From: Candidatus Moraniibacteriota bacterium
GTDB taxonomy: Bacteria; Patescibacteriota; Minisyncoccia; Moranbacterales; UBA1568
NCBI GenBank assembly: GCA_013334245.1
Contig: JAAXXZ010000004.1
Coordinates: 127-64,126 of the forward strand
Length of the DNA: 64,000 nucleotides
Direction of reading: 5' to 3'
Shown piece by piece: positions 42,531 to 61,037 of the stretch. A program made the translations under genes and the position numbers. The notes below the pieces were generated by a model. The model was not told the origin of the DNA. It saw only the letters and a list, made by a program, of their open reading frames with translations, and searched no databases. Position 1 is the first letter of the stretch. Every line of letters starts with the position of its first letter.

Positions 42531-42555
42531 AGAAAAGGGGTCAGGCACTTTTTTA
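42531..42555 (+). other. 24-nt motif GAAAAGGGGTCAGGCACTTTTTTA, 85 bp downstream of the helicase-like gene (copy A)
   Basis: 22 of 24 positions identical to 61014-61037 (copy B) downstream of the OLD-family gene. Confidence 0.5.
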
Positions 42556-42830
42556 TTCTCATCATTGATCTAATCAATTGAAATAATTTTCCAATGAGTT
42601 GTTGAGGCGATGCGGATGCGTTTTCCCTCAACCCAGCCCTTTCCCAACGGGAGAGGAGGTACAAGGTCGGTTTTCTGATATTGGGGCAAAGATTCCCGTT
42701 TCCACGGGAATGACAAAAACTGAATCGGATTCGAGAGTCGGAATATTGGAAGATGTGGTGTCGAATTGCCGAATTACCGATCTGTTATTATTCCGGTAGA
42801 TTGATTTCGATATCCTGAAATGAAAACGTT

Positions 42831-43445
42831 ATGGATCTCGATGACATCATACGACGCATGCGGTCCTCACACGGCATTCTCTATATCCTGTGCGGTCTTC
42901 CGTATTCCGGAAAGACGTATGCGGCTCGGAAGATCCTCGATGCCGTCCCGTGCGTGTACGTGAGCGTGGACGATATCCTGGAAGCGCTCGGGTATGACTG
43001 GAACGCGGGAAAACTGCCCGACGAAAAGGGATGGGAATCGGTCATGGATATCTCGTATCGACGGACCCGTGAAGCCCTCTGGGATTCCAAGAACGTGCTG
43101 TACGATTCGACGAATCACACGAAAATCAGTCGTGACGAGCTGCGGAAGGTCGCGGACGATGCGGGTGCCGGTTCGCGGGTGGTGTTTGTCGATGCGCCGG
43201 CCGGGGTTGTGAGGCGACGCTGGGAGGAAAACAAGACCAGCAGGAAACGATTCGTTTTAAGCGAAGAGCTTCTAGACATGACCATCGACGCTTTGGAAGT
43301 TCCCGGATCGGACGAAGATCCATGGATCGTGGCTCGATGGTATGATCCGTATCCAGGGGGCGGGGACCGTGCGTGGGGCGGAATGTACCCCATGTTTTTC
43401 TCCGCTTTCGTAAACGGTGGCTTTATAGTAAGCTTGACGCAGTGA
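42831..43445 (+). CDS. P-loop kinase-like protein (AAA_33 / zeta-toxin-like fold)
   Basis: P-loop GLPYSGKTY and a Walker-B-like VVFVDAP. Confidence 0.5.
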   Translation: MDLDDIIRRMRSSHGILYILCGLPYSGKTYAARKILDAVPCVYVSVDDILEALGYDWNAGKLPDEKGWESVMDISYRRTREALWDSKNVLYDSTNHTKISRDELRKVADDAGAGSRVVFVDAPAGVVRRRWEENKTSRKRFVLSEELLDMTIDALEVPGSDEDPWIVARWYDPYPGGGDRAWGGMYPMFFSAFVNGGFIVSLTQ

Positions 43446-43461
43446 ACGAACCCTTCCGCTT

Positions 43462-44850
43462 ATGACCGACAAGTCGATAAATCATCCCGAAAAGAAAGGG
43501 AACGGCATCCTCCGGGGGTTGAGCAAGACCGAGCACATCGCGCTCAATATCTTCAAAACCATGCTGAGCCGGAAGCGGTTCAACCGGTTTCTGCATATCC
43601 TGGGACCCGGACTGGTGACCGGTGCCGCCGACGACGACCCATCCGGAATTGCGACCTATTCGCAGGCGGGTGCAGGGAACGGACTCGGGCTCCTGTGGGC
43701 GTTCCCGCTCATGTATCCGTTTCTCCTGGCCGTGCAGGAAAGCTGCTCCCGTATCGGGGCCATCACCGGCAAGGGCCTTGCGGCAGTCATCAAGGAGCAT
43801 TACGGACGGCCGCTCCTGGTCATGTCGGTCGGATTGGTGGTCGTCGCGAATACGGTCAATATCGGTGCGGATCTCGGCGCGATGGCCGCGACAACGCAAC
43901 TCTTCGTAAATATCCCGTTCGCGCTCCTGGCGATCTTCTATGCCGTCGTCATCGTCTTGCTGGTCATTTTCGTCAGTTACAAGCAGTATGCGAAACTGTT
44001 GAAGTGGCTCGCCTTGGCATTGTTTTCCTATCCTATCGCGGCATTCATGGTCGGACAGGACTGGATGGACGTGTTCCGGAACACGTTCACCCTGACCCCG
44101 AGAATTGATTTCGAAACCATGTACCTGTTCGTGGGCATGCTTGGGACGACCATTTCTCCCTATCTCTTCTTCTGGGACACGTCGGAAGTCGTCGAAGAGG
44201 AGATCGCGAATCACAACCGTTCCAAGATCGGCGAGGACCCGAAGCGAACCAAGCGGTTTCTGCACAACCTTCGCGTCGACAATTTCGTCGGTATGACGCT
44301 CGCGAGCGTGACCGCGTGGTTCATCGTGATCGCCTGCGCGTCCACCCTGCATGCGGGCGGCATTACGGAAATCAACACGGCCGCGGACGCCGCACAGGCG
44401 CTCGAACCGCTGGTCCGGAATTTCCCGAACTCCGGCTTCGTGGCGAAGCTCATCTTTTCCGTCGGTATCATCGGCCTCGGGCTTCTGGCCGTGCCGGTGC
44501 TTGCCGGTTCGTCCTCGTATGCGATTAGCGAGGCGTGCGGGCTGAAGGAAGGCCTGTATCGGAAGTTCCGGAAGGCGAAGGGTTTCTATATGATCATCAT
44601 CATCGCGACGGTCGTCGGACTGGCGATGAACTTCATCGGACTCGATCCGATCAAGGCGCTCGTCTTCACCGCCGTATTCAACGGTGTCGCCGCGGTGCCG
44701 CTCCTTTTCATGATCGCCAAGGTCGGCAACAACGCGGACATCATGGGCGAATACAAAAACGGCCGCGTCTCGAACGTGTTCGTCCGGCTTGCCTTCGCCA
44801 TCATGACGCTCGCGACGCTGGTCCTGTTCTACTCGTTTTTCCGAGCGTAA
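43462..44850 (+). CDS. mntH: NRAMP-family divalent metal transporter
   Basis: 11-12 TM; DDDPSGIATYSQAGA at the position of the DPGN metal-binding motif. Confidence 0.75.
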   Translation: MTDKSINHPEKKGNGILRGLSKTEHIALNIFKTMLSRKRFNRFLHILGPGLVTGAADDDPSGIATYSQAGAGNGLGLLWAFPLMYPFLLAVQESCSRIGAITGKGLAAVIKEHYGRPLLVMSVGLVVVANTVNIGADLGAMAATTQLFVNIPFALLAIFYAVVIVLLVIFVSYKQYAKLLKWLALALFSYPIAAFMVGQDWMDVFRNTFTLTPRIDFETMYLFVGMLGTTISPYLFFWDTSEVVEEEIANHNRSKIGEDPKRTKRFLHNLRVDNFVGMTLASVTAWFIVIACASTLHAGGITEINTAADAAQALEPLVRNFPNSGFVAKLIFSVGIIGLGLLAVPVLAGSSSYAISEACGLKEGLYRKFRKAKGFYMIIIIATVVGLAMNFIGLDPIKALVFTAVFNGVAAVPLLFMIAKVGNNADIMGEYKNGRVSNVFVRLAFAIMTLATLVLFYSFFRA

Positions 44851-45021
44851 TAAGCACTTCGAATTGGGATAATGCCCTTTGGTTTTTTCTTTCGATATGA
44901 TTACGTCAGAATGGATAAGTGGGGTCTGCTGTCTGTCATGAAAAAATGGTTTTTGCTTTCTTGTCTCCCGAAGACGGTATATACTAGGGTAGATTTCCGA
45001 TTGACTGTGCCGTTCCTGCGT

Positions 45022-48000
45022 ATGAAGATAAACCGAGTCGTCTTAGTTCCGATTTTACTGGGTGGGTTGTTCATGTTTTCGTGCTCCGCTTCGGCGGCAA
45101 CGTTATGGGAAGACACCTTCGATCGCGCCGATGGTGCGGTGGGGAACGGGTGGGTCGGAACGGGTGACACCACAGCCGAAATTTCCAGCAACGCTCTTCA
45201 TAGGACCTCTTCCGACGGGTATACTATCTATTATAATCCAGCCGGTGGCACGCTTCCGGCAGATTATTATATTACGGTTACATTGCCGAATTCTCAAATC
45301 AGGAGTCATTTTTGGGGGATTATTGGAAGATATCTTCCGCCGGGTTCAGGCATGGGAAGCGGTAATAAGATTTTTTGGACCGATCAAGGCTTTATGTCAT
45401 CGGGTGTCGGAAATGCCGAGTATGAGAACAATTTTTCTTTGACGATGACAGGCGGATATCCGGAAAGCTGGTCGCTTGATCAGGATCATTCCGTGACTCT
45501 CCATTATCAGGATTCGAGGGTCACGGCCTATCTCGATGGGGAAGAATTGGGCTATTTTACAGACACAACGAATGATCAGGTCGGAACTGGAGTCGGGTTT
45601 GTTGGTGACAATGGAACCTTCCGTGATATTCGCGTGACTGATGATCTTCCAAAATATCTCCCGTTTGGGTCGGATGCGGTGGACCCGATCGTTTCAAATA
45701 TCTTCTCGACGACCACGGAGTCCGACGCGACAATTGTGTGGAATACGGATGAATTGACCCAGGTGACGATCGAATATGGCCTTACCGACGCATATGGAAG
45801 TTCCGTTTCCACCGAGGCCTGGACAACCAATCACTTGATGACGGTTAGCGGGCTCTCTGCTGGAACGACTTATCACTACCGCATCGTCTCGAACGATTTC
45901 GCCGGTAACGTAGCCGAGTCCTCAGACTATATATTATCAACGATAGCTTCCGGAGACGTGTATTGGACTGATGATTTTCATCGGGAATATGGTGCCGTGG
46001 AAAACGGATGGGTCGGTGTCAATTCGGCGGTTGGCCTCATTTCAAATGATATCTTGGAACGAACCGACGAATATCAATACCGGATTCTTTATAACCCAGC
46101 TGGTGGAGCTTTGCCGCAAAATTATTATCTGACGATGTTCGTTCCGCAGTCGACACTGGATGGAACTTTTTGGGGACTTATTGGCCGGTATTTTTCACCC
46201 GGTTCTGGTATGGGTACCGGAAACAAGGTGTTTTGGATGGATGGTGGAATTCAGTCGGCCGGAGTAGGAAATGCCGAGTTTGAGAATAATTTTTCTTTGA
46301 CGGTTACGGGGGGATATCCGGAAAGCTGGTCGCAAGATCGTGTGCATATGGTGACACTTGGCTATAATGGAAACACCGTTACCGTTTATCTTGACGGAGA
46401 AGAGCTCGGATATTTCACGGATACGACGAACAATCAGACTGGCACGGGAATCGGATTGGTCGGAGATGGCGGTGGTGACTTTTTTGTGCTCGGGACGAAA
46501 GTGACGCAAGCACTACCGGTTTTTTTGGCAGCCGGAGCAGAGCCGGACACAAATCCACCCACATTGTCACTGATAAGTGTCAATCCTGCCGAAACGACCG
46601 CCGCCGTTTCTTGGACGACAGATGAAGAAGCCAATTCATTTGTCGAATATGGATTGACGGACACATATGGGAACACCGCTTCTTCGGTTTCAATGACGAT
46701 GTCACATACTCTCGCACTTTCCGGGCTCACGGCTGGGACGACCTATCATTATCGTGTCGCTTCGACCGACGCTTCCAGCAATACGGCAACTTCAGAAGAT
46801 GCGACGTTTACGACCGATCCAGAAGGATCTACTCCGGAGGAAGTGGTGTTTCACACAACGGGTGCGACATTTTCCCCGATTTTGACAGTTGCGGACGGAG
46901 CCGTGATTGAATGGACTTTTCACGACGGGACTACGTCTAATTCAGCCTCGCCAACCAAAGCTTATGGGAGTACGGGAAACAGGGAAAACCGTTTGACGGT
47001 GACTCCGTGGAGTGCGCTGACCGAGGTGAATATCGGGTATGACGGAGGGGACGATGGGACGTTGCCAAATCCACACCTAGTACAACAAAATGTTACTGCG
47101 GTGGATGGTATGGAATATATGGCGCCGTATCTTCGCGTCTGGGCTTCATCGCAGAACCCCATAGCATCGCTTGATTTTTCCGATTTCATCTCCCTACGCA
47201 CCATTGAGTGTTTTCTCTGTCAGCAGATGACCTCAGTTGATCTTTCAAACACTCCATCGCTTGTCCGTGCGAATTTCGAGGATAATAACTTGCAGAGTCT
47301 CAATCTCTCGGAAAGTCCGGCTCTTGAGGATCTTCGCGGAGCGAACAATGGATATACGGAAATTGTCTGGGGGGATACCGGAGATAATGTGTGGCATATT
47401 TGCACGAGAGATAATCCTCAATTGAATGTAAATTTTCCTGATATGTCCCGATATCCACTTCTTGAGGAACTGTGGATCTGGAACGATAATCAAACTGGAA
47501 CGCTTGCTCCGACATCGTCCGCTCTCCGCTCGGTTCAGGCATTTGACAATCACTATACGGCAGCAGATTTTTCTGGGTTGTTTCCGTCCGGCCGGGCCGC
47601 CGAGGTGAATGTAAGCGGGAATGATCTGACGCATCTTGATGTTTCCGATAATCCTGGGCTTATGTGGCTTTATGCACAGGACAACGATCTTGATCAGGCG
47701 ACGGTTGATGCCGTACTCCACGATCTTGCAACGGTGCCAAACGGTCATAATTCCGGAGTGCTTGATTTGACTGGAAATGCGGAGCCATCGTTTTCAGGGC
47801 TTGATGACGTCTCCATTCTTGAAGCTCGAGGGTGGACGGTATCCGTGGACGGTGACGGTGTCCCCAGCGAGCCTATCGACATCTTGTACCTCAATACGTC
47901 TGCTGGATCTACGAGTGCGATTGTTTTTTGGAATACTACCAGGGAAGGGACATCGGTTATTGAGTATGGGACCGATACTCATTTTGGGTCGACTGTTTCT

Positions 48001-49647
48001 TCCGATGTAATGACTACATCGCACCATATTCTGTTGGAAAATTTACTTCCAGATACCTCGTATGTCTTCCGTGTGACGTCCGAAGATAGTGAAGGAGGCA
48101 TATTCAGTATATCAGAGAGTACTTTCCGAACGAGAGCCACGGGAGTGACCTATTGGGAAGACGACTTTCATCGGGCAGACGGATCCGTTTCGAACGGGTG
48201 GGTTTCGGTGAACGGCGCGGTGGGCGAGATCGAAAGCGAGTCACTGCTCCGCTCCGATCAGGATGACTATCGTATTTTGTATCATCAGACGGACGGGGAT
48301 TTGCCTGCGGACTATTTTGTCACCATGACGATACCGAATTTGACCGCCGGCCGTAGCTTTTGGGGACTGGTCGGACGGTATCTGCCACCGGGTGCGGATA
48401 ACGGGACCGGTACGCAGGTGTTTTGGGGCGATCAGGGTCGCGATGTGTTGAACCCGGGCAATCCGTATTGGGATAGCGTCTTGCCGATTACGGTGACGGG
48501 TGGGATTCCGGAAACATGGAACGAAAATCGTGTACATGCGGTCACGCTCGGATATGCCGGCGATGCGGTGACGATTTACCTTGACGGCGAGGCGTATGGA
48601 ACGCTCCAGAATAACACGAATATACAGACAGGGACCGGTATCGGTATCGTCGGTGACGGCCGCGGAACGGCATTCGGCGTGCTTGATGTTCGTGTGACGG
48701 ATTTTCTTCCGGATTATTCGGAACAGGTCGGCGACGAAGCTCCAGAGGTGACTTCTTTTGTCCTTCCTGAGACGTCTAATTCTTTGGTCGTTCCGATTTC
48801 CCTATTTACCGCAACGGACGATATCGGCATCACAGGATACCTGATTACGGAATCGCCGGACAATCCCGCATACGATGATCCGATGTGGAGCGTGTCGGTT
48901 CCTACCATGTTCAATTTTTCAACTGAGGGGGAGAAGACCCTTTATGCGTGGGTGAAGGACGGGTCGGGGTCGATATCGTCTTCTCTGAGCGAAACGGTTA
49001 TCGTGCGGATCGTTGATTCCGTGGCAGATGACGATACGGAAGATGACGGTGAAGAACGCGAGGAAGCGCCCGATGACTTCGAGATATCGAACGTGAAATA
49101 CGGGGTAATTGGTTCGGATAGCGTTCGGATATCGTTTTTGACGAGTAATGAGACGCGGGCGACTATCCGATATGGGACGGAATCGAACCGGTTACATCGG
49201 AAGCGAACCGAAGATCGGAAAGGGAAGCGACACACTGTTATCTTGCGAGATCTTGTCCCTGGAAAACGGTATTTCTTTCGGGTTTCCGCCGAAGACGATT
49301 ATGACCAGGATGATCGGAGCAGGATTCATTCCGTTGAACTCCCATCGCTTTCGAAAGCAGCGCCAGTCGTTTCATCCGCAGTTTCGGTGGGAAAGCCTGT
49401 GAAGATTCCGGTTTCAGTTCCGGGCGACACCCCGGTTTTTCCCGATGTTTTGCCTGAATCCGCGCCGCAGGACCTTGATAGCGAAACGCATAATACAGAG
49501 GATGTTGGTTCGGAAAGTAAAGGAATGGAGTTGACCGATAGAAATGAAAATACGGTGTCATCGTCGCCGGACGATTTGATCCCATCCACCTCGAGTGGAG
49601 CCTCGTCATTTGTCTGGTGGAACCCTTTCACCTGGTTTAAAAAATAA
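45022..49647 (+). CDS. Giant secreted surface protein with three LamG/ConA-like lectin modules alternating with FN3 domains and an LRR-like segment
   Basis: Signal peptide; three copies of W.DDFHR.DG.V.NGWVG...FWGL.GRY..PG...G.G...FW.D.G; FN3 blocks (YHYRV); LRR-like LSNTPSL..NLSESPALEDL; GC about 48%. Confidence 0.6.
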   Translation: MKINRVVLVPILLGGLFMFSCSASAATLWEDTFDRADGAVGNGWVGTGDTTAEISSNALHRTSSDGYTIYYNPAGGTLPADYYITVTLPNSQIRSHFWGIIGRYLPPGSGMGSGNKIFWTDQGFMSSGVGNAEYENNFSLTMTGGYPESWSLDQDHSVTLHYQDSRVTAYLDGEELGYFTDTTNDQVGTGVGFVGDNGTFRDIRVTDDLPKYLPFGSDAVDPIVSNIFSTTTESDATIVWNTDELTQVTIEYGLTDAYGSSVSTEAWTTNHLMTVSGLSAGTTYHYRIVSNDFAGNVAESSDYILSTIASGDVYWTDDFHREYGAVENGWVGVNSAVGLISNDILERTDEYQYRILYNPAGGALPQNYYLTMFVPQSTLDGTFWGLIGRYFSPGSGMGTGNKVFWMDGGIQSAGVGNAEFENNFSLTVTGGYPESWSQDRVHMVTLGYNGNTVTVYLDGEELGYFTDTTNNQTGTGIGLVGDGGGDFFVLGTKVTQALPVFLAAGAEPDTNPPTLSLISVNPAETTAAVSWTTDEEANSFVEYGLTDTYGNTASSVSMTMSHTLALSGLTAGTTYHYRVASTDASSNTATSEDATFTTDPEGSTPEEVVFHTTGATFSPILTVADGAVIEWTFHDGTTSNSASPTKAYGSTGNRENRLTVTPWSALTEVNIGYDGGDDGTLPNPHLVQQNVTAVDGMEYMAPYLRVWASSQNPIASLDFSDFISLRTIECFLCQQMTSVDLSNTPSLVRANFEDNNLQSLNLSESPALEDLRGANNGYTEIVWGDTGDNVWHICTRDNPQLNVNFPDMSRYPLLEELWIWNDNQTGTLAPTSSALRSVQAFDNHYTAADFSGLFPSGRAAEVNVSGNDLTHLDVSDNPGLMWLYAQDNDLDQATVDAVLHDLATVPNGHNSGVLDLTGNAEPSFSGLDDVSILEARGWTVSVDGDGVPSEPIDILYLNTSAGSTSAIVFWNTTREGTSVIEYGTDTHFGSTVSSDVMTTSHHILLENLLPDTSYVFRVTSEDSEGGIFSISESTFRTRATGVTYWEDDFHRADGSVSNGWVSVNGAVGEIESESLLRSDQDDYRILYHQTDGDLPADYFVTMTIPNLTAGRSFWGLVGRYLPPGADNGTGTQVFWGDQGRDVLNPGNPYWDSVLPITVTGGIPETWNENRVHAVTLGYAGDAVTIYLDGEAYGTLQNNTNIQTGTGIGIVGDGRGTAFGVLDVRVTDFLPDYSEQVGDEAPEVTSFVLPETSNSLVVPISLFTATDDIGITGYLITESPDNPAYDDPMWSVSVPTMFNFSTEGEKTLYAWVKDGSGSISSSLSETVIVRIVDSVADDDTEDDGEEREEAPDDFEISNVKYGVIGSDSVRISFLTSNETRATIRYGTESNRLHRKRTEDRKGKRHTVILRDLVPGKRYFFRVSAEDDYDQDDRSRIHSVELPSLSKAAPVVSSAVSVGKPVKIPVSVPGDTPVFPDVLPESAPQDLDSETHNTEDVGSESKGMELTDRNENTVSSSPDDLIPSTSSGASSFVWWNPFTWFKK
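45098..48690 (+). repeat. Three copies of an about 530-bp coding repeat (LamG-like module) at about 45098, 45960 and 48150
   Basis: About 75% nucleotide identity between modules 1 and 2, readable directly from the sequence. Confidence 0.5.
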
Positions 49648-49697
49648 GGGGAATACGTATGCTGACGATTTTATAGATGATATGTTTTAAATTCGCT

Positions 49698-50240: not shown

Positions 50241-50243
50241 CGT

Positions 50244-51707: not shown

Positions 51708-51749
51708 CGCGACAAAAGTCCGACATATCACCATTTTGTGTAATTCCGT

Positions 51750-53394: not shown

Positions 53395-53398
53395 TCGG

Positions 53399-53413
53399 CC
53401 CGCTTTACAATAG
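53399..53413 (+). promoter_or_regulatory. CCGCTTTACAATAG motif copy 1 (upstream of rubrerythrin)
   Basis: One of four copies in 5 kb; contains TTTACA / TACAAT promoter-like hexamers. Confidence 0.4.
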
Positions 53414-53466
53414 GCGGTTCTTGCGGGAAAATTGTCGATGGGCGAAGTAATTTTGTTGAAAAGCAT

Positions 53467-53967
53467 ATGGCATCTCATGAAGACCTGATGGCGGCGTTCG
53501 CGGGCGAAAGCCAGGCGAACCGTAAGTACCTCGCGTTCGCGAAGAAGGCGGAAGCCGAAGGCTATCCGGCCGTGGCGAAGCTTTTCCGTGCGGCGGCCGA
53601 GGCCGAGACGGTACACGCGCACGCGCATCTTGCCGCGGCCGGCGGCGTGCAGGATACCGCCGCGAATCTCGAGGCGGCGATTGCAGGGGAACAGTACGAG
53701 TTCACGGATATGTATCCGGGGTTCATCGCGACTGCCGAGGCGGAGGGGAACGTGGCGGCACTCAAGTCTTTCAGGAACGCCGATGCGGTCGAGCACGAGC
53801 ACTACGAGCTCTATCGACAGGCACTCGAGGCAATCAAGGCCGGGCACGATATCGAGGACCTTGCGATCTACGTCTGTCCTGTCTGCGGGCATACCGAGGT
53901 CGGCGTCCGGTCGGAGAAGTGTCCGATTTGCGGCGTCCCGGGAAGCACGTTCATCGAGGTGAAGTAA
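53467..53967 (+). CDS. Rubrerythrin
   Basis: Di-iron four-helix E..H motifs and a C-terminal rubredoxin-like CPVCG...CPICG domain. Confidence 0.85.
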   Translation: MASHEDLMAAFAGESQANRKYLAFAKKAEAEGYPAVAKLFRAAAEAETVHAHAHLAAAGGVQDTAANLEAAIAGEQYEFTDMYPGFIATAEAEGNVAALKSFRNADAVEHEHYELYRQALEAIKAGHDIEDLAIYVCPVCGHTEVGVRSEKCPICGVPGSTFIEVK

Positions 53968-53995
53968 TCTCGCAGATTTCTTTGGAAAAGCGAAA

Positions 53996-54026
53996 AGCCA
54001 TGAAGGTGCGCCTTCATGGCTTTCGT
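53996..54026 (+). terminator. Rho-independent terminator after rubrerythrin
   Basis: AGCCATGAAGG-tgcg-CCTTCATGGCT followed by TTTCG. Confidence 0.6.
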
Positions 54027-54340
54027 GATTGCTGGGATAGTTTTGGGTCACTTGTTTCCGGGAAGTCGCACGCTTTTGTACTGCACGTTTCGCACATACT
54101 TCGATCCGGAACAGAGGATATGGTGGAGAAGGACTATGAGTCCTACTCCGAACAGGGTCCATTTTTTCATGATCAGAGATGGTTGCGTTAAAGAAAAGAG
54201 GGACAATCAGGCGAAAGAGAGGATATCACGCTCTGCAGATGTGTCAAAGATTTCGACGTATGAGGTAAGGAGATGATCGGCTCATATATGCGTGCGCTTC
54301 TTTTTCGGCCGGAACGGACATCCCGCTCGGGATACCGCTG

Positions 54341-54354
54341 TTCGCTTTACAATA
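54341..54354 (+). promoter_or_regulatory. CGCTTTACAATAG motif copy 2
   Basis: Directly upstream of a GGGGAGAGG RBS and the small ORF at 54373. Confidence 0.4.
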
Positions 54355-54372
54355 GTGTCCGGGGAGAGGAAA

Positions 54373-54480
54373 ATGAAGCAGGAAATCATGGCGGAAATTC
54401 ATGGCTATACGCCCGCTACATGTTGCCGATGCCATCACAGGAGTGACGCGAGCGGACGGCCGTCCATTCGCGTCACCTGA
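54373..54480 (+). CDS. Possible 35-aa Cys/His-rich peptide (MKQEIMAEIHGYTPATCCRCHHRSDASGRPSIRVT)
   Basis: Strong SD 5 nt upstream and motif copy 2 upstream; the 3' end is encoded inside the 34-bp palindrome, so it may be a non-coding leader instead. Confidence 0.25.
   Translation: MKQEIMAEIHGYTPATCCRCHHRSDASGRPSIRVT
54443..54476. promoter_or_regulatory. 34-bp nested palindrome GTGACGCGAGCGGACGGCCGTCCATTCGCGTCAC, candidate operator, copy 1
   Basis: 9-bp outer arms GTGACGCGA/TCGCGTCAC and inner GGACGG/CCGTCC arms; 25 bp upstream of the PaaX-like gene start. Confidence 0.45.
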
Positions 54481-54502
54481 TTGAATGATAATGGAGGGAA
54501 AT

Positions 54503-55081
54503 ATGAAACGACTGGGACCGGTGCAGGAAAAGACGCTTCTCATCCTTCTTGGTGTCATCGCGCTTGGGGGTTCGCGCACGATCGTGCGGCAGGCCAGGCT
54601 GGTTTCGGAGCTCCGAAAGGAATGGAAAAAGATCGACCGGAGGAGCGTCGCGCGTTCGCTGAGGCGCCTTTCCGAGGAGAAGCTCATTTCCGAGAAGGTC
54701 TTGCCGGATGAGACCGTCCATTTCGCGCTCACCTCGGAAGGGCGTCGGAAAGCGAGTTTTCTGAACCTGTTCGGTTCGGCCATCACATTCAGGAAGCCGA
54801 AAAAATGGGATGGAAAATGGCGGGTTGTCGCGTTCGATATTCCCGAGAAGAGCCGGTCATTCCGCCGCATCTTGCGCGAGCATCTTCATGAAGCGGAATT
54901 CTATCAGTTGCAGCAAAGCGTGTTCGTATCGCCATATCCTTTCGAGGAGCCGTTTGCGAAGCTCGTGCGGCTGTATGATGCCGAGCCGTACGTCAGGATC
55001 ATGACGGTTTCCTGGATGGATGACGAACTGAAATTGAGGCGCATATTTTTCGGACGTCGCAGGAATCCTTCGAAAGGGTGA
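54503..55081 (+). CDS. PaaX-like winged-helix transcriptional regulator
   Basis: C-terminal block KWDGKWRVVAFDIPEKSRSFRRILREHL...QQSVFVSPYP matches the PaaX C-domain pattern; SD GGAGGG upstream. Confidence 0.55.
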   Translation: MKRLGPVQEKTLLILLGVIALGGSRTIVRQARLVSELRKEWKKIDRRSVARSLRRLSEEKLISEKVLPDETVHFALTSEGRRKASFLNLFGSAITFRKPKKWDGKWRVVAFDIPEKSRSFRRILREHLHEAEFYQLQQSVFVSPYPFEEPFAKLVRLYDAEPYVRIMTVSWMDDELKLRRIFFGRRRNPSKG

Positions 55082-55111
55082 CGTGAGCGGACGGTCGTCA
55101 TTTCGCGCCAC
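55078..55111. promoter_or_regulatory. 34-bp palindrome copy 2 (GTGACGTGAGCGGACGGTCGTCATTTCGCGCCAC), overlapping the regulator stop codon
   Basis: 28 of 34 positions identical to copy 1. Confidence 0.4.
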
Positions 55112-55147
55112 ACTTTTGAGAAGAGTGTGATTTTTCGAATACGGATA

Positions 55148-55162
55148 CCCGCTTTACAATAG
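55148..55162 (+). promoter_or_regulatory. CCCGCTTTACAATAG motif copy 3 with G-rich leader GGGGAGTAGAAAGGGGGTGAAAGGGG
   Basis: Shares the motif and an extended leader with copy 4. Confidence 0.4.
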
Positions 55163-55200
55163 GGTAATTGGGGAGTAGAAAGGGGGTGAAAGGGGTGGGG

Positions 55201-55390
55201 ATGAAGGCATCCGATCTCGTTTTGGGTTAGGGCTGCTCATCGAGGTCGAGCGATTGTCGGACGCAGAAAACGACGAAGCGGTCCAGGAAGACCTGAAAGC
55301 CTTTCTCCTGTCACTCGGCATCGGCAAAATGGACATCGTCACCAAGGGCTACGATACGCTTTTGTATGAGGCGGGAAAATTCGCTTGTTA
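55201..55390 (+). pseudogene. Internally deleted duplicate of the CYTH gene: promoter, leader and first codons fused to the last about 160 bp
   Basis: 55233-55390 is about 90% identical at nucleotide level to 58969-59124; the reading frame is closed after 9 codons (MKASDLVLG*). Confidence 0.6.
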
Positions 55391-55451
55391 AAGGAGTTGG
55401 AGGGGAGGAAAACAGGGGTGTAGGTCTATCGTGATGCTTTCTTCATTGACT

Positions 55452-57839
55452 ATGAAATACGTCAGCTCCCTTTGGAATATCGAGAAAGAAGATAGCGCTA
55501 TCGCTGGAGGAAAAGGCGCTTCGCTTGGTGAGATGATTCGGGCGGGCTTCCCTGTCCCGCCAGGATTTGTCGTTCTTTCAAGTGCTTTTGACGTTTTCTT
55601 GAAGGGGACGGGCTTGAATGCCAAGGTGGAATTGATACTGGAGTCAGTTATTCCCGAAGACACAGGGACAATCGAAAAAGCTTCTGAAAACATCCGATCG
55701 ATTATCCTTGCGGCGGCGATGCCAAGGGAAATTGAAGAGGAAATCAGGAAATCATTCAATGAACTCGGTTCGGAATATGTCGCTGTCAGGTCTTCGGCTA
55801 CCGCCGAGGATTCTGCTGTAGCGGCATGGGCAGGACAGCTCGAAAGCTTTCTTAATACCAATTCGGAAGACTTGCCGAAAAACGTGAAGAGTTGTTGGGC
55901 TTCGCTCTTTACGCCGCGCGCCATAACATATCGGCTCGAAAAAGGATTGGGTTCGCAAAGCATATCAGTCGCTGTCGTCGTTCAGGAAATGGTGGAGAGT
56001 GATACGTCAGGTATTGCCTTTTCCGTCCATCCCGTAACACATGACGTCGACCGTATGTTTATCGAAGCGGGGTACGGGCTTGGTGAAGCGATCGTGTCGG
56101 GGCAGGTTACCCCGGACAGTTATGAGGTGAGAAAAGATCCGATGGAAATAGTGGATAAGAATATTCAATCACCAGCGCGTGGATTATATCGGTCTGATCG
56201 CGGAGGAAACGAATGGCACGATGTGCCTGCGGAGCGGAAGGGGAAGGCGGTTTTGTCGGACGCTGAAATCATAAAGCTGTCGGATATTGTTGTCGGCATA
56301 GAGGGACACTATGGGTTCCCATGCGATATCGAGTGGGCAATCGCAGACGGGCGGCTGTATGTTGTCCAAAGTCGACCGATAACGACACTTGCTGAAAAGC
56401 TCGTGACCGTAGAAAAATTGTTGCTCATGTACAAGGAAGTCAATGTCTGTGGATTGACGATGTCCGTGAACGTCTCGGGTTGGATAGACGAATGGCTGAG
56501 TCGGACCTGCCGCGTAGGCAGTTTCGGGTCGATGGCTTGCCGGTTCCGCGGATATGAGATGGATTTCTATGTGGATAAGGGTCAGTACGAAAAAGCGCAT
56601 TTCGAAATAGTGCGACAGATCGAGGCTGGCACGTATCCCATCGAGTTTTCGACCGAGCGCTCGATGGCGTTGGGTGATCGGATCCTATCGATTGTCCGTT
56701 CGGGTCGTTCGGTATGGGAGGCTATGGACCCTGGGAAAGTCTGCGAAATATTCTCTGAAGTATTCGATTGTAGTCGGAAGCTTTGTTCTTATGGATACAT
56801 TGCCCCCTTATCCGATTTCCCGTACACCTTCATTTCTTCCCGGATGCAGGAGATACTCGAGGCGCGTCACGCTTCGGATGCGGCTGGTCTGAAAATCTTT
56901 TTGAGTACCCCGGAGGCTAGGCGCCCGATGATGCTTGCAAACGAAGAGATGTTTCGGATTATCGCCGAGCAAGGGGACCTCGGATCGTGGCTACAGCGGT
57001 GGTTTTGGATCGATTTCGGTCACATCGGTGCGGTGCTGACCGACGCGTCGGTTCGTGAGAAGTACAAGTTATTATTTGACGATCCCAAACGCGCGACGAC
57101 AGAGCTGCAAAATATCTCTGCAGAATACGGTTCTTTGGAGGAGAAACAGGAAAAAAATATTGGAGAGCTCGGGTTTTCAGATGAAGAGAGACGGATTTTT
57201 CGATATGCACGGGAGATCACGTTTCTGAAGGGGTATCGTGCCGATGTGCTTTCGGCGGCAAACGCATTTTTTGACGCGGTTTTCGAAATCTATTCGAAAA
57301 GACTCGGTATCGGGAAAGACGTTTTCAGGTTTGCGACAAAAGAGGAAGTGGTTGCGCTCATATCGGGAAGCGATATCAATGTCGCGGAAATCCTTGAAAG
57401 GAAAGACTATTCCATTTGGCTTTATACGGACAACGCCTCTGGAATCTTGATACATACCGGCGAACAGGCACGACAGTTTGAAGCAGATCATCTGGCGGAA
57501 GAGCATGTCGTTCATGAGGGAAAAGTTATAAAAGGAAATGTCGCGTACCCCGGTATCGTTGAAGGTACTGTTCGGATTGTGAACTCTCTGGAGGACCTTA
57601 AGAAGATGAATCGCGGAGAAATCCTGGTATCGACGCAGACCACACCGGAACTGCTTCCCGCGATGAGCAAGGCGGCCGCCTTTATTGCCGATGTTGGGGG
57701 GATTATTTCCCATGCCGCCATCGTCGCGAGAGAGATGAAGAAGCCTTGTATCATTGGGACCGAAATCGCATCCAAGGTCCTCAGGGATGGCGATCGGGTT
57801 CGTGTCGATGCCAACTCCGGGGTGATAGAGATAATATGA
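55452..57839 (+). CDS. PEP-utilising enzyme with N-terminal PEP-synthase-type ATP-grasp domain and C-terminal phospho-His swivel domain, with no PEP/pyruvate TIM-barrel domain (rifampin-phosphotransferase-like architecture)
   Basis: N-terminal GGKGASLGEM and ATP-grasp motifs; C-terminal GGIISHAAIVAREMKKPCIIGT mobile domain at the very end of the protein. Confidence 0.7.
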   Translation: MKYVSSLWNIEKEDSAIAGGKGASLGEMIRAGFPVPPGFVVLSSAFDVFLKGTGLNAKVELILESVIPEDTGTIEKASENIRSIILAAAMPREIEEEIRKSFNELGSEYVAVRSSATAEDSAVAAWAGQLESFLNTNSEDLPKNVKSCWASLFTPRAITYRLEKGLGSQSISVAVVVQEMVESDTSGIAFSVHPVTHDVDRMFIEAGYGLGEAIVSGQVTPDSYEVRKDPMEIVDKNIQSPARGLYRSDRGGNEWHDVPAERKGKAVLSDAEIIKLSDIVVGIEGHYGFPCDIEWAIADGRLYVVQSRPITTLAEKLVTVEKLLLMYKEVNVCGLTMSVNVSGWIDEWLSRTCRVGSFGSMACRFRGYEMDFYVDKGQYEKAHFEIVRQIEAGTYPIEFSTERSMALGDRILSIVRSGRSVWEAMDPGKVCEIFSEVFDCSRKLCSYGYIAPLSDFPYTFISSRMQEILEARHASDAAGLKIFLSTPEARRPMMLANEEMFRIIAEQGDLGSWLQRWFWIDFGHIGAVLTDASVREKYKLLFDDPKRATTELQNISAEYGSLEEKQEKNIGELGFSDEERRIFRYAREITFLKGYRADVLSAANAFFDAVFEIYSKRLGIGKDVFRFATKEEVVALISGSDINVAEILERKDYSIWLYTDNASGILIHTGEQARQFEADHLAEEHVVHEGKVIKGNVAYPGIVEGTVRIVNSLEDLKKMNRGEILVSTQTTPELLPAMSKAAAFIADVGGIISHAAIVAREMKKPCIIGTEIASKVLRDGDRVRVDANSGVIEII

Positions 57840-58474
57840 CCACGTTCCCTATGAGACTTATACTTGGCTCGGATATGAGCTTTCTTCTGAAATACGGGTA
57901 CGACCTGACCGGAATTTCGAAGGCGGATATGCGGATCGGGTATGTGACGACAGGGATAAAGGGAGTGCGCACGAAGGAATTTTTCGAGAACGTGGAACGA
58001 CAGATCGTGGAGATCGGATACGATTTCGAGAAGTTCGATATTGAAGGAAAAAGCGTGGAAGAAATGAGGTCGTTCTTCGCGGACAAGAACGTGATCCATA
58101 TCGAAGGCGGTAATACGTTCTATCTATTGAAAGCCATCCGGGAAACCGGTTTCGCCCCAGTGCTTGATGAGCTCCTCAAAGAGGGGAAAGTCTATATCGG
58201 TACGAGTGCGGGATCCTATATAATGTGCCCGTCGATCGAAGTGGCGGATTGGGACGAAACCGGAAAAAGCCGGTTCGGAATGACCGACTTCACCGCTCTC
58301 GGGTATGTCCCATTCGTTCTGAAAGTGCATTACAAGGATGAGAAGGAAGAAACCGTGAGGGAAAAGATGAAGACTGTGCACCATCCGCTCCGATTACTTC
58401 GTGACGGGCAAGGCATCCTCGTCGACAACGGCGTCGAAACCTTCGTCGGTGACGGAGAAGAAACGGTGTTATAG
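57835..58474 (+). CDS. Peptidase E (S51 family)
   Basis: GTSAGS nucleophile region and IHIEGGNTFYLL; ATGA overlap with the preceding stop codon. Confidence 0.75.
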
Positions 58475-58484
58475 GTGAATTATA

Positions 58485-58499
58485 TCCGCTTTACAACGG
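58485..58499 (+). promoter_or_regulatory. TCCGCTTTACAACGG motif copy 4 with the same G-rich leader as copy 3
   Basis: Upstream of the CYTH gene at 58549. Confidence 0.4.
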
Positions 58500-58548
58500 C
58501 GTGTTTGGGGAGTAGAAAGGGGGTGAAAGGGATGGATATTCCGTTCCG

Positions 58549-59124
58549 ATGGTGGGGTATGTCATTAGTACCGAAATGAAGGAAATCGAGGTCAAAGCAC
58601 GGATACGCGATATCGACACGCTGACCGGAGTGCTTGCCGCCAAGGGGTTCGTATTCGGCGAACCCGCGGTCCAAAACGACGTGATATTCCTGCCGGCCGG
58701 GATCGAGTTCCCGGAAATCACCAAAGGGGTGCCGGTCGTGCGTGTGCGGAACGCGGACGGCGTTTTTACCCTGACACTCAAGATGCGCGTCATCGCCGGG
58801 AAGGAACTCATAAAGCTGGAGAAGGAAGTGAATGTGAGCGACGACAAGACGGCCATCGAGATCGTCTCGCTCATGGGATTTCACGAGGTGATACGAGTCG
58901 GCAAGAAACGGATGGAATGCGAACACGACGGCGTGACCGTCTGTATCGACGATGTGACCGGACTCGGGGCGTTCATCGAGGTCGAGCGATTGTCGGACGC
59001 AGAAAACGGCGAAGCGGTCCAGGAAGACCTGAAAGCCTTCCTCCTGTCGCTTGGCATCGGCACAGACGACATCATCACCAAAGGCTACGACACGCTTTTG
59101 TATGAGAAGAAGAAACCGTGTTAA
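58549..59124 (+). CDS. CYTH-domain protein (CyaB-like), paralogue 2
   Basis: MKEIEVKARI E.E.K motif; intact parent of the 55201-55390 fragment; a short 15-codon uORF in another frame starts at 58533. Confidence 0.65.
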   Translation: MVGYVISTEMKEIEVKARIRDIDTLTGVLAAKGFVFGEPAVQNDVIFLPAGIEFPEITKGVPVVRVRNADGVFTLTLKMRVIAGKELIKLEKEVNVSDDKTAIEIVSLMGFHEVIRVGKKRMECEHDGVTVCIDDVTGLGAFIEVERLSDAENGEAVQEDLKAFLLSLGIGTDDIITKGYDTLLYEKKKPC

Positions 59125-59179
59125 AACGCGATTGGAAGAGTATGAATGAATATAATCCATAATACAGTTTCATGAGTCT

Positions 59180-60946
59180 ATGCGATATATAAAGTTTCTG
59201 ATTCGTAATTATAAAGGAATAAAGTCATTAGAGTTGGATTTAGATTTATTCCCCGATCATAAAATCTATACACTAGTTGGTCTAAATGAATCGGGGAAAA
59301 CAACCATACTTGAAGCAATAAATGATTTTGAATTTGATGTCTCAGTTAATAAGCGGCATCTGTTAATACCGAAGAGTTCGGCGGGAGGTTTTACTGGAGA
59401 TATCGCAATAAAAGCAACGCTTCAATTTTCTGAAGATGATAAAGGGAGAATAATTGCCTTCATTCGGTCGAGGATTAAGGTAAGTGAAGTGTTTGTCTCT
59501 GAAACTTTAATCATAGAACGAAAATATAGTTTTAAAAACTCTACGCCGTATGAGTCTAAAAGAACATACGAAAAATATGTAAAAATAAAAAAGACTGCAA
59601 AAGGAAAGCCAGTTGATTTGGATGAAAGTATATCCAAAGAACTGTGGAGTTTTATTAAGGAAACGATGTTTCCTGAGATAATCTTTTATCGTGATTTCCT
59701 TTCTAAATTTCCGGAGAAGATTTACTTAGATGCAGAAGATCCTAAAGATAAGAACTATCTATCAATTATTGAAGATATTCTTACTGCTATAAATCCTGAT
59801 TATAACGTTCAAAATAGTCTCTTAGACAGACTGGACGATTCAACTGATGCTGCAAAAAAACAAGCGCTTGAAGCAGTCGAGAATGACATGGGCGCGAAGA
59901 TTTCTAAAGTAGTGTTTGACGCATGGAACAAGATACTAAACGTAAGTAAGAAAGAAATTGTTGTTAAGGCAGAATATGATGCCGAGAAGGGAAGATATTA
60001 TCTTCGATTGAGCGTAAAAGATGGTCATCAAACTTACGCCGTTGCTGAGCGGAGTCTAGGATTTCGATGGTTTTTCACTTTTCTTTTATACACAGAATTT
60101 CGAAAGGAAAGGATAAAAACTTCAGGAGAAATCTTGTTTATTTTGGATGAGCCAGCATCAAATCTTCATCAGACTGCGCAACAAAGCTTACTTGAAACAT
60201 TTCGTACAATAACAAGCAAATCACGACTAATATATACAACACATAGTCATCATTTGGTGAATCCAGAATGGTTAAGTTCCGCATATATTATTCGAAACAA
60301 AGGTCTTAAGTATAATGAGAGTGATGATTATAATCTAACGAAGACGGAAATTGAAGCATTTAAGTACAAGCAATTTGTTTCAAAATACCCGACCGAAACC
60401 TCGTATTTTCAGCCGATTTTGGATGTGTTGGATTATAAGCCAGGCTTACTTGAGCTGATTCCCAATATCGTAATAACAGAAGGAAAATTCGACTATTTTA
60501 CCTTTAGATATTTTAAAGAGATAGTTTTCTCGGACTTGACTGATGGCTATAGATTTTATCCTGGAATGGGCGCTTCAAGCTTAGACCTACCTATTTCCTT
60601 ATATGAATCATGGGGTAAAGGATATTTGGTTTTACTTGATTCGGATAAGGAGGGCCGTGATCAAAAGGAGCGTTATATTAAAGATATAAGCGATACTCAG
60701 CATATCTATACTCTTGAGGATTGTTTTTCAGATTTAAAAAATTCAACGACTGAAAAAGTATTTACTGAAACGGAAAAAATTGAAATCTCTAAGGAGTTTA
60801 ACAGTGAGCTTACTGAATATAATAAAAACGCTTTTAATACGGGAATTCAGATTCTGTTAATGCAAAAACGTATTCCTGACTATTTAACTGATGAAACAAA
60901 GAAAAAGATGAGGAAGATTATCGAATTTATCAACGGTAAAATATAA
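59180..60946 (+). CDS. OLD-family nuclease (N-terminal ABC-type ATPase plus C-terminal Toprim)
   Basis: Walker A GLNESGKTT, Walker B ILFILDEPASNLH, H-loop TTHSHH; Toprim Glu (ITEGKFD) and DxD (LLDSDKEG); about 33% GC. Confidence 0.7.
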   Translation: MRYIKFLIRNYKGIKSLELDLDLFPDHKIYTLVGLNESGKTTILEAINDFEFDVSVNKRHLLIPKSSAGGFTGDIAIKATLQFSEDDKGRIIAFIRSRIKVSEVFVSETLIIERKYSFKNSTPYESKRTYEKYVKIKKTAKGKPVDLDESISKELWSFIKETMFPEIIFYRDFLSKFPEKIYLDAEDPKDKNYLSIIEDILTAINPDYNVQNSLLDRLDDSTDAAKKQALEAVENDMGAKISKVVFDAWNKILNVSKKEIVVKAEYDAEKGRYYLRLSVKDGHQTYAVAERSLGFRWFFTFLLYTEFRKERIKTSGEILFILDEPASNLHQTAQQSLLETFRTITSKSRLIYTTHSHHLVNPEWLSSAYIIRNKGLKYNESDDYNLTKTEIEAFKYKQFVSKYPTETSYFQPILDVLDYKPGLLELIPNIVITEGKFDYFTFRYFKEIVFSDLTDGYRFYPGMGASSLDLPISLYESWGKGYLVLLDSDKEGRDQKERYIKDISDTQHIYTLEDCFSDLKNSTTEKVFTETEKIEISKEFNSELTEYNKNAFNTGIQILLMQKRIPDYLTDETKKKMRKIIEFINGKI

Positions 60947-61013
60947 TTTGGACATTCAGATAATGGTCTATATTCAATATTTCGAATAAATTCCCCCTAC
61001 TTGTCGCGTATCC

Positions 61014-61037
61014 GAAAAGGGGTCAAGTACTTTTTTA
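61014..61037 (+). other. 24-nt motif GAAAAGGGGTCAAGTACTTTTTTA (copy B), 68 bp downstream of the OLD gene
   Basis: Matches copy A at 42531-42555 at 22 of 24 positions. Confidence 0.5.

Follow-up and report, generated by a model that had tools for sequence, protein, structure and literature searches.

The window, a 64-kb stretch of DNA labelled as Moranbacteria, contains two AT-rich islands. The first (approximately 39700-42600) holds the gene for a 903-aa SF1 helicase (39734-42445, plus strand), which has a GC content of 36% against approximately 57% in the host and matches the PADLOC candidate defence protein PDC-S53 over its full length. The second (approximately 59125-61800) holds a plus-strand gene (59180-60946; GC content of 34%) encoding a 588-aa AAA_15/AAA_21 ATPase related to AriA, OLD, and GajA, in which a Pfam search did not identify a Toprim domain. 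A Zn-ribbon/DUF4234 gene (61141-61773, plus strand) shares the island of the ATPase.

Three copies of a short motif in or at the islands

A sequence-only reading of this DNA reported the same 24-nt motif after the helicase and ATPase genes. Both copies were confirmed in AT-rich DNA, with 22 of 24 positions identical; the first starts at 42532 rather than 42531. Copy A (plus strand) is the 24-mer GAAAAGGGGTCAGGCACTTTTTTA at 42532-42555, or CAGAAAAGGGGTCAGGCACTTTTTTA when taken as 26 nt (42530-42555). It lies 86 nt 3' of the helicase stop codon (42445) and is followed by approximately 45 further AT-rich bases. Copy B (GAAAAGGGGTCAAGTACTTTTTTA; 61014-61037, plus strand) lies 67 nt 3' of the ATPase stop codon (60946), between the ATPase and Zn-ribbon genes. 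The distances previously given, 85 and 68 nt, were each wrong by one nucleotide. Copies A and B have AT-rich DNA on both sides and are away from the junctions between host and island DNA.

The earlier count of two copies overlooked a third, inverted copy. Copy C (39699-39724, minus strand) reads CAGAAAAGGGATCAGGTACCTTTTTA on the minus strand, with the 24-mer GAAAAGGGATCAGGTACCTTTTTA at 39699-39722. It is located 11 nt upstream of the helicase ATG (39734) and exactly on the left GC/AT boundary of the helicase island. Copies A and C form a 26-nt inverted repeat (88% complementary) on either side of the helicase gene; their arms differ at three of the 26 positions and represent different variants of the repeat family described below. 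The ATPase island has one copy only, internal to the island. No fourth copy with five or fewer mismatches was found anywhere in the 64-kb window. Approximately 6% of the intergenic DNA of the window belongs to the two AT-rich islands, and each of the three copies is in or at one of them.

Within single copies, only a 5-6-bp dyad, AAAAG(G)/(C)CTTTT, encloses an asymmetric core of 9-10 nt. The folding energies of the window copies were -1.2 to -4.8 kcal/mol, which were equalled or bettered by 11-154 of 200 shuffled sequences; the previous statement that the motif is not self-complementary was essentially right. A rho-independent terminator was rejected because none of the three sites was called by a terminator scan and the stems are weak and A/T-rich. 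A cassette recombination site had also been proposed. This option was not supported: integron attC core sites (RYYYAAC...GTTRRRY) and a palindrome are absent, one copy is inverted and precedes its gene, and the 20 window ORFs scanned around the islands included no integrase, transposase, or recombinase.

A repeat family shared with a tyrosine-transposase element

The motif belongs to a repeat of approximately 21 bp with the consensus A-AAAGGGGTCAGG[T/C]ACCTTTT-T. The 20-mer core, AAAGGGGTCAGG[T/C]ACCTTTT, showed almost no variation across at least 119 genome stretches of many phyla, including Moranbacteria, the labelled host of the window. Taxa among the matches listed were Patescibacteria, Planctomycetota, Acidobacteriota, Binatia, Myxococcota, Bdellovibrionota, Omnitrophota, Bacillota, and others, and two of the 16 sequences allowed by the search pattern accounted for 120 of the 161 matches listed. 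Conservation ends at positions -1 and +1 of the 20-mer; in the flanks of 158 copies, only A at -1 (69%) and T at +1 (44%) stood out, and no conserved tetranucleotide was detected. The conserved part of the motif is its G+C-containing core, GGGGTCAGGYAC. The core of copy A, AAAGGGGTCAGGCACTTTTT, is one of the common family variants, while copy B is the 'CAAGTAC' variant, which occurs mostly in Moranbacteria and other CPR genomes. We found no published description of the exact 20-mer, its near-invariance across phyla, or its abundance in Patescibacteria.

Many MAGs carry several copies per genome, and several copies per 8 kb are common. Across the loci examined, the repeat was present as solo copies, (+)(-) hairpin doublets, and arrays. 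The consensus repeat has only a 6-8-bp A/T-rich stem with a 9-nt loop. Of 33 pairs of neighbouring copies on opposite strands and spaced by less than 120 nt, 31 were in the (+)(-) arrangement, folding at -27 to -33 kcal/mol; these doublets, the starts of which are 20-111 nt apart, are built like elements that have lost their interior but kept both inverted ends. Approximately 74% of copies were outside ORFs according to crude ORF calls. The median distance of copies past a stop codon was 47 nt, their orientation relative to genes was random, and no Rfam family matched at the examined loci of the 20-mer in other genomes. Genes bordered by the repeat elsewhere included recR, transketolase, a TonB receptor, and a HemQ-like gene. 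In GC-rich genomes, the copies sit in GC-rich DNA, and viral contigs carried the repeat at chance level only. Low-GC CPR genomes were rich in the repeat.

At least seven loci (L070, L018, L108, L119, L064, L075, and L167) contain the repeat as the two inverted ends of a unit of approximately 0.75 kb. In all seven units, a (+) copy is positioned approximately 30-50 nt before the ATG of a 222-226-aa ORF and a (-) copy over its stop codon, such that the last codons of the ORF lie within the 3' repeat. The units are oriented (+)...(-) with GGGG outermost, and the DNA outside the repeats is unrelated between loci. The intact element of L167, a mid-GC Moranbacteria MAG, has a repeat that differs from copy B by one base. 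The suggestion in the sequence-only reading that the motif may be a transposon end was right in kind, as the motif forms the terminal inverted repeats of an element with a Y1 tyrosine transposase.

The unit ORF matches Pfam Y1_Tnp (PF01797; E=6e-20, residues 12-126 of 226). No other Pfam family was identified at E<=0.01, and a C-terminal HTH domain was not detected. The best NCBIfam match was the REP-associated tyrosine transposase model NF047646 with 72.3 bits, which is below the cut-off of 80; the NCBIfam IS200 model yielded 22 bits (cut-off of 55). The unit ORFs share an NH[WF]H motif and a Y-[IV]-E-x-N(-P) motif. In an alignment of six proteins, N59-H60-x-H62 and Y122-x-E124-x-N126 were invariant, P127 was present in five of the six, and a C-terminal part of 100 aa followed, with an AT-hook-like terminus, RGRPKKGT, that the repeat itself encodes.

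Comparison with TIRtrons and other repeat systems

The nearest named classes are TIRtrons with their TIRYT transposases (Di Nocera et al. 2013, PMC3733652), TnpAY1 subclass 2.1 (Quentin et al. 2018, PMC6006769), and RAYT Group 1 (Bertels et al. 2017, PMC5581495). TIRYT repeats share the motif GGGGWSAS (PMC3733652, also given in PMC6006769), occur as singles, dimers, and groups, and may overlap gene ends (PMC3733652). The present element similarly carries a RAYT-like Y1/HUH transposase gene between inverted repeats instead of hairpin REPs, its 3' repeat overlaps the end of the gene, and its repeats are also found singly, as dimers, and in groups with a very wide taxonomic spread. GGGGWSAS is present as GGGGTCAG in copy A and the family consensus, and is one base off in copies B (GGGGTCAA) and C (GGGATCAG). 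Proteins of TnpAY1 subclass 2.1 have a median length of 238 aa, the HuH motif NH[YF]H, and the Y motif YIELNP (PMC6006769); the unit ORFs, at approximately 225 aa with NH[WF]H and YIExNP motifs and a C-terminal extension, are similar. Based on these sequence features, the putative transposase of the element matches TIRYT (RAYT Group 1, TnpAY1 subclass 2.1), and the 20-mer family matches the known TIRtron/TIRYT class as a new example. In contrast to the published TIRtrons, which are from complete genomes, chiefly of Proteobacteria, Acidobacteria, and Planctomycetes, the window contains solo copies only, with no transposase gene.

The family also resembles the REP/REPIN-RAYT systems of E. coli and Pseudomonas, namely, short intergenic repeats, mostly 3' of genes, that occur as singles, inverted doublets, and clusters and are linked to, and flank, a single-copy-type Y1 transposase gene. 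However, each classical REP unit is a G+C-rich hairpin with self-complementary arms and a GTAG (or CGTC) tag, and these repeats are lineage-specific, whereas the present repeat unit does not form a hairpin alone, lacks a tetranucleotide tag, and has nearly the same sequence in distant phyla; moreover, the unit ORF scores below the curated threshold of NF047646. The Y1/HUH catalytic core (PF01797) is shared with IS200/IS605. However, those elements have differing subterminal hairpins on one strand rather than inverted repeats, and their TnpA is approximately 150 aa and has no C-terminal extension, whereas the unit ORF has one. Internally deleted elements of DDE transposases differ in that the present enzyme is Y1/HUH, a target-site duplication was not seen, and the window has no doublets.

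Origin of the copies next to the helicase and ATPase genes

The shared 3' motif had been taken to suggest a common delivery vehicle for the two genes or a mark of imported genes. The relatives of both genes do not support this view. Helicase relatives (73-88% identity) in five other contexts lacked the motif within up to 5 kb (to the contig ends in L122). Two ATPase relatives (73 and 70% identity) sit within type I restriction-modification operons, and the 73% relative, the only one whose DNA was examined, lacked the motif. The core-gene neighbours of the repeat, its random orientation, its chance level in viral contigs, and the bracketing of the helicase, which is inside-out relative to real elements, also argue against a common vehicle. 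The same reading had named frequent occurrence regardless of context as grounds for doubting its proposal, and the motif was frequent in this manner across other genomes.

Since the motif is a terminal inverted repeat scattered between genes in many phyla, we consider it to be an ordinary repeat and not the tag of a delivery vehicle. It is most probably a solo copy of the approximately 21-bp repeat that forms the terminal inverted repeats of TIRtrons and is scattered in a REP-like manner, and not a cassette site. We read the three window copies as neither part of helicase or ATPase cassettes nor a site for a cassette recombinase because of the relatives without the motif, the housekeeping-gene neighbours, and the inside-out bracketing of the helicase. 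Similar to REP sequences, copies of the repeat are dispersed between genes, in most cases shortly after a gene end, and the (+)(-) doublets look like internally deleted elements. By analogy with the IS200/RAYT literature, the copies are presumably made in trans by the transposase on single-stranded DNA; we found no published experimental demonstration of TIRYT proteins mobilising such repeats.

Several observations count against this interpretation. A TIRYT gene was not found in the window (best tblastn E=0.69), the NF047646 score is below the cut-off, and a C-terminal HTH domain was not detected by Pfam. The position of copy C exactly on the boundary of the helicase island also counts against it, and the confinement of all copies to the islands would not be expected for a generic intergenic repeat, copies of which sit in GC-rich DNA in GC-rich genomes. 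Two readings may account for this location. The copies may have arrived within imported AT-rich DNA from a repeat-rich donor, or a transposase of the host lineage may seed copies preferentially in AT-rich, weakly constrained DNA.

The tight bracketing of the helicase CDS by copies C and A may alternatively indicate that the helicase gene is carried as cargo by a non-autonomous transposon, the ends of which were mobilised in trans by TIRYT, with copy B as the surviving end of a second unit. The left copy on the GC/AT boundary is consistent with this possibility. So is the DNA homology to the relative in L122 (88%), which is confined to the CDS and ends at the CDS ends, as if the gene alone had moved; the left junction of L122 carries a truncated motif-like TAAAGGG-TAAAAGGGAT. 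In L057, a GC-rich genome, an AT-rich ORF likewise has copies on both sides in the (-)(+) order. However, the (-)...(+) order around the helicase is the reverse of that in all seven real elements and 31 of the 33 close doublets, the two arms are different family variants, the ATPase has a single copy internal to its island, and the relatives of both genes lack the motif. Furthermore, recR and transketolase are also bracketed elsewhere, which suggests that bracketing is due to repeat density. We consider this explanation unlikely.

Pre-existing host copies may also have served as hot spots for the integration of foreign DNA, as REPs do for some insertion sequences; REP sequences in other families are established insertion targets (PMC8450116). 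This is compatible with the location of all three copies at or in islands and with the position of copy C on the left boundary of the helicase island. In other genomes, 10.7% of copies coincided with strong GC shifts versus 4.8% of random positions, an approximately two-fold excess, and the AT-rich side was 5' of the motif in 11 of 15 such copies. In L060, a Moranbacteria genome, a copy lies 3' of AT-rich AbiV and SocA/Panacea genes. However, copies A and B are not at a host/island junction, none of the ORFs scanned next to the islands encodes an integrase or transposase, no target duplication or att-like repeat was seen at them, and the excess at GC shifts elsewhere is modest. We regard integration at such sites as improbable. 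Another idea, to which we also assign a low probability, is that solo TIRYT ends are not passive. In Patescibacteria and other phyla, they may mark events in which individual foreign genes, defence genes among them, are precisely captured or inserted, or may mediate such events through Y1 single-strand cleavage and rejoining. The bracketing of the helicase at its CDS ends, the CDS-only homology to L122, and the location of all copies in islands would then be explained.

A role for the motif as a host regulatory element (a terminator, operator, or nucleoid-protein site) acting on imported genes is very unlikely. Two copies end in a T-run 67-86 nt past stop codons, and roles in mRNA stability and termination have been assigned to REP-type repeats in other bacteria (PMC3733652). 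However, the hairpin is weak, AT-rich, and not called by the terminator scan, copy C is inverted and precedes a start codon, and the 20-mer is tied to a transposase gene in unrelated phyla with random orientation and no Rfam match. A chance resemblance between AT-rich low-complexity stretches, for which the A- and T-runs of the outer parts may speak, is ruled out for practical purposes by 100 dinucleotide-preserving shuffles of the window (no matches with three or fewer mismatches versus three observed) and by the recurrence of the conserved core in well over 100 genome stretches, mainly as two of the 16 allowed variants.

The present results indicate that the helicase and ATPase defence genes share no delivery vehicle and that the motif is unfit as a marker of imported cassettes. 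One 20-bp repeat associated with a Y1 tyrosine transposase varies very little in sequence among Patescibacteria, Planctomycetota, Acidobacteriota, and Bacillota. Since REP-type repeats are usually lineage-specific, this family may be a convenient model for DNA recognition by TIRYT, to which its conserved asymmetric core, A/T-tract arms, and AT-hook-like tail encoded by the repeat are relevant, and may also help to explain the spread of such repeats. These repeats break metagenome assemblies, which matters for binning and the calling of genomic islands in CPR genomes. Many of the transposase homologues sit on contigs of approximately 1 kb.

Copies of the motif and the islands that hold them

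Two plus-strand copies of a 24-nt motif, at 42532-42555 and 61014-61037, were identical at 22 of 24 positions. The first is located 86 nt past the stop codon of the helicase ORF (903 aa) and the second 67 nt past that of the ATPase ORF (588 aa). The sequence-only reading had reported this pair and its 22/24 match; it placed both copies correctly, except that its start for the first (42531) was one base early. Both copies are real, but they are not the only ones: a search of the window with up to 3 mismatches yielded 3 matches versus 0 in 100 dinucleotide-preserving shuffles. The third is on the minus strand (39699-39722), with the helicase ATG (39734) 11 nt downstream. A repeat finder joined 39699-39724 and 42530-42555 into a 26-nt inverted repeat (88% complementary) enclosing the helicase gene, and its arms are two different variants of the repeat family. 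The 5' partner that had been envisaged at the island edges exists for the helicase, but a search 5' of the ATPase gene did not find one. With up to 5 mismatches, the 64-kb window held no copy beyond the three and none that partners a solo copy nearby.

The host DNA has a GC content of ~57%, and both islands have 34-37%. According to the GC profile, the AT-rich helicase island spans ~39700-42600 and the AT-rich ATPase island ~59125-61800. The left helicase copy (39699-39724) is exactly at the GC/AT boundary, and 45 further AT-rich bases follow the right copy (42530-42555). The ATPase copy (61014-61037) is inside its island, with the ATPase gene on one side and a Zn-ribbon/DUF4234 gene on the other. 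The helicase matches the PADLOC candidate defence protein PDC-S53 over its full length (1019 bits, residues 1-901). The ATPase is of the AAA_15/AAA_21 type, and its nearest matches are the ATPase domains of AriA, OLD, and GajA; Pfam detected no Toprim domain in it. Proteins identical to both are on record from an NCBI MAG labelled Candidatus Moranbacteria.

Probable relationship of the motif to a Y1 transposase element

We consider it likely that the motif derives from a TIRYT/TIRtron-type Y1 transposase element and represents its terminal inverted repeat as a solo, REP-like copy. The "transposon end" among the earlier suggestions holds in kind, in that the motif forms the inverted end of such an element elsewhere. 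At six of the listed loci from other genomes and metagenomes, (+)...(-) copies (GGGG ends outermost) 706-729 nt apart flank a single ORF of 222-226 aa, and pieces of the same transposase gene adjoin the motif at six additional loci. The ORF matched Pfam Y1_Tnp (IS200-like transposase; E=6e-20), and its best NCBIfam model, "REP-associated tyrosine transposase", scored 72 bits, short of the model cut-off of 80. An alignment of six of these transposases (45-79% identity) revealed an invariant N-H-[WF]-H motif, a Y-[IV]-E-x-N(-P) motif, and a C-terminal part of ~100 aa ending in RGRP[KRQ]K[GS]T. The 3' repeat itself encodes the final codons and stop (AAA AAA GGT ACC TGA), as observed at L070:7098-7125, L018:3210-3237, and L167:6661-6688; the others are alike. 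Every TIRYT ends in an AT-hook-like RGRPKKGT, and the arms of the 3' repeat that supplies its last codons are A4/T4 tracts.

A protein search with the Moranbacteria transposase yielded 4938 relatives at E<=1e-10, many of which are on contigs of 0.9-1.6 kb; in some sources, their annotation reads "transposase" or "REP-associated tyrosine transposase". A search of solved structures gave no sequence match to the transposase at E<=0.01. A Moranbacteria MAG with 51% GC (L167) carries an intact unit, the repeats of which (AAAGGGGTCAAGTACCTTTT) are one base off the window copy at 61014-61037.

RAYT-like genes bounded by terminal inverted repeats, not by hairpin REPs, have been described as TIRtrons encoding TIRYT (Di Nocera et al. 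2013, PMC3733652). Many TIRtron repeats share GGGGWSAS; the repeats may overlap gene ends and are present in genomes singly, as dimers, or in groups (PMC3733652). The motif in the present study contains GGGGTCAG, which is consistent with GGGGWSAS. TIRYT corresponds to TnpAY1 subclass 2.1 (Quentin et al. 2018, PMC6006769), whose members have a median of 238 aa, carry the HuH motif NHVH or NH[YF]H and the Y motif YIELNP, and are extended at the C-terminus (PMC6006769). The protein features identified here agree with this subclass; Pfam gave no support for its HTH-like C-terminal domain in the present transposase. The corresponding RAYT Group 1 has the widest distribution of the RAYT groups (Bertels et al. 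2017, PMC5581495) and is one of the two most like insertion sequences (PMC5581495). Judging from the enzyme family, TIRYT would spread solo copies via single-stranded DNA. We found no mention of the 20-mer in the literature, and searches with the motif string gave unrelated primer-type matches only.

Distribution of the motif family

A scan with the pattern AAAGGGRTCARGYACYTTTT, using one genome per species, matched at least 119 stretches, and a single 8-kb block often contained several copies. The matches listed came from Patescibacteria (many Moranbacteria), Planctomycetota, Acidobacteriota, Binatia, Myxococcota, Bdellovibrionota, Omnitrophota, Bacillota, and others. The pattern allows 16 sequences, and two of them, AAAGGGGTCAGGTACCTTTT and AAAGGGGTCAGGCACCTTTT, accounted for 120 of the 161 matches listed. 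Conservation ends at positions -1 (A 69%) and +1 (T 44%), beyond which the flanks are unrelated. What retains interest is a 20-mer that is near-invariant across phyla, abundant in Patescibacteria, and clustered in the two AT-rich islands of the window.

With up to 3 mismatches, the 119 loci listed held 205 copies. Where neighbouring copies on opposite strands were separated by less than 120 nt at these loci, 31 pairs were (+)(-), as in the element itself, versus 2 (-)(+). The (+)(-) doublets form hairpins of -27 to -33 kcal/mol and resemble elements that have lost their interior. Copies on their own fold weakly; those of the window reached -1.2 to -4.8 kcal/mol, which many shuffles equalled or bettered. 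Variable complementary stems outside a conserved loop were also considered: at least 3 extra outer-stem pairs occurred in 19% of copies versus 9% of the control, a modest enrichment. According to crude ORF calls, ~74% of copies at the loci listed were outside ORFs, and those past a stop codon were at a median distance of 47 nt. No preference in orientation relative to flanking genes was noted. Genes enclosed by copies included recR, both transketolase subunits, and those for a TonB-dependent receptor, a HemQ-like protein, an esterase, and a HepT toxin.

In one Pirellulales MAG (L068:2592-2660, L114:6240-6306, and L116:1335-1400), the motif heads a longer unit of the type TTTCACATTCAAAAYCCCGCCCCAWAAGCAGGATTCC, with ~45 nt of extra conserved sequence; therefore, extended derivatives exist in some genomes. 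"Stutter" arrays were present beside some elements (L075:3223-3420 on the minus strand, L043:~4370-4430, L087:~4860-4921, L106:~280-336, L119:600-740, L030, and L111). Their unit is a locus-specific 3-5-nt prefix followed by stepwise longer 5' parts of the motif, such as GAAT-AAAGGG, GAAT-AAAGGGGTCAGG, and GAAT-AAAGGGGTCAGGTACCTTTT. The example array has approximately ten repeats immediately 5' of the transposase gene. All shortened copies keep the outer (GGGG) end.

Clustering in the islands and the two defence genes

All three window copies are in intergenic DNA of the islands, which contain ~6% of the ~6.7 kb of intergenic DNA in the window (crude gene call). Under uniform placement, the probability of three copies falling in the islands is ~2e-4, and it is ~0.06-0.14 for the sole copy outside the earlier selection. 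Across other genomes, the link of copies to compositional shifts was weak: 10.7% of copies versus 4.8% of random positions were at GC shifts >0.10, and the AT-rich side was 5' of the motif in 11 of 15 copies at such shifts. In a related genome with 50-60% GC (L143), copies are located in ordinary intergenic DNA. In another Moranbacteria MAG (L060:189-2115), AT-rich genes (29-35% GC within a 45% locus) encode HEPN/AbiV and a SocA/Panacea antitoxin with a partner gene, and a motif copy follows 30 nt later.

Two explanations fit this clustering. The copies may have been imported within AT-rich donor DNA, and the repeat is abundant in low-GC CPR genomes. Alternatively, the host lineage's own TIRYT may seed copies, chiefly where the DNA is AT-rich and weakly constrained; the Moranbacteria MAG L167, for comparison, has an intact TIRYT unit. 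We obtained no orthologous empty site: 34 metagenome loci encode relatives (<=89% identity) of the Nramp gene next to the island, but none of them shares any further neighbouring gene with the window.

The motif does not belong to the helicase and ATPase genes. Four helicase relatives (73-88% identity) at six loci (L122-L127) represent five distinct contexts in low-GC genomes, such as Gracilibacteria, and no motif copy was present within up to 5 kb of any of them (for L122, within its 3,009-nt contig, which ends 22 nt past the stop). The DNA homology between the window and L122, the 88% relative, is confined to a stretch that begins 3 nt ahead of the ATG and ends 17 nt short of the stop. The ATPase relatives (73 and 70%) are inside HsdM-HsdS-ATPase-HsdR operons with overlapping or nearly abutting gene ends. 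DNA was available for the 73% relative only, and it has no motif copy. The possibility that the motif travels with the two genes was rejected on these grounds. The proposed common vehicle for the two defence genes lacks support, and the motif is uninformative on whether they shared one. The cassette recombination site also fails; screening of 20 window ORFs around the islands revealed no gene for an integrase, recombinase, or transposase. A tblastn search of the window with two TIRYT proteins gave no match.

A large serine recombinase is nearby in two of the five helicase contexts. It comprises Resolvase, Recombinase, and Zn_ribbon_recom domains and is near or beside relatives of 76-77% identity (L123:846-2165 and L124:7726-9009); therefore, these relatives probably move on another type of element. 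At the left end of the L122 contig (L122:1-60), GC-rich DNA changes to AT-rich DNA at ...CTCTCTTGTTTTTAAAGGGTAAAAGGGATAGAC, a truncated motif-like stutter in plus orientation. The ATPase relatives (L128:1232-8640) interrupt type I restriction-modification operons, with hsdS on one side and hsdR on the other, and the window ATPase gene stands alone.

It is improbable that the helicase is the cargo of a transposon with the flanking copies as its ends. The inverted copies do enclose the gene, but their (-)gene(+) arrangement, with the T-run ends outermost, is opposite to that of all seven real elements, and the helicase relatives and the one ATPase relative with DNA lack the motif. Marginally less credible still is the proposal that the copies are hot spots at which the islands integrated, since the ATPase copy is within its island and the right helicase copy has AT-rich DNA beyond it. 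A phage origin or phage box was rejected (3 matches in 2.9 million viral contigs, close to a rough chance estimate), as were a sigma-54/sigma-70 promoter or terminator, which the sequence and scan results oppose, and a known RNA family, with Rfam at gathering thresholds reporting six tRNAs only in the window and no match at the motif.

Some further features of the window were noted. Two independent Logan assemblies with an identical ATPase gene (L120 and L121) both stop 100 nt 5' of the ATPase start (window 59080-59125), which places their ends ~45 nt 5' of the point where the ATPase island begins on the GC profile; strain heterogeneity or a break in coverage may account for this shared end point. 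A tRNA-Ser(GCT) gene (38044-38131) is located 1.6 kb 5' of the helicase island. A tRNA-Ser-linked island was rejected, as a downstream search found no repeat of the tRNA 3' end of at least 12 nt (no att-like copy). The genes 3' of this tRNA, encoding an fn3-domain protein and an unknown protein, are slightly GC-poorer. A 1591-aa ORF (44872-49647) with repeated fibronectin-III/purple-acid-phosphatase-N-type domains has a GC content of 50% versus 56-60% for most host genes.
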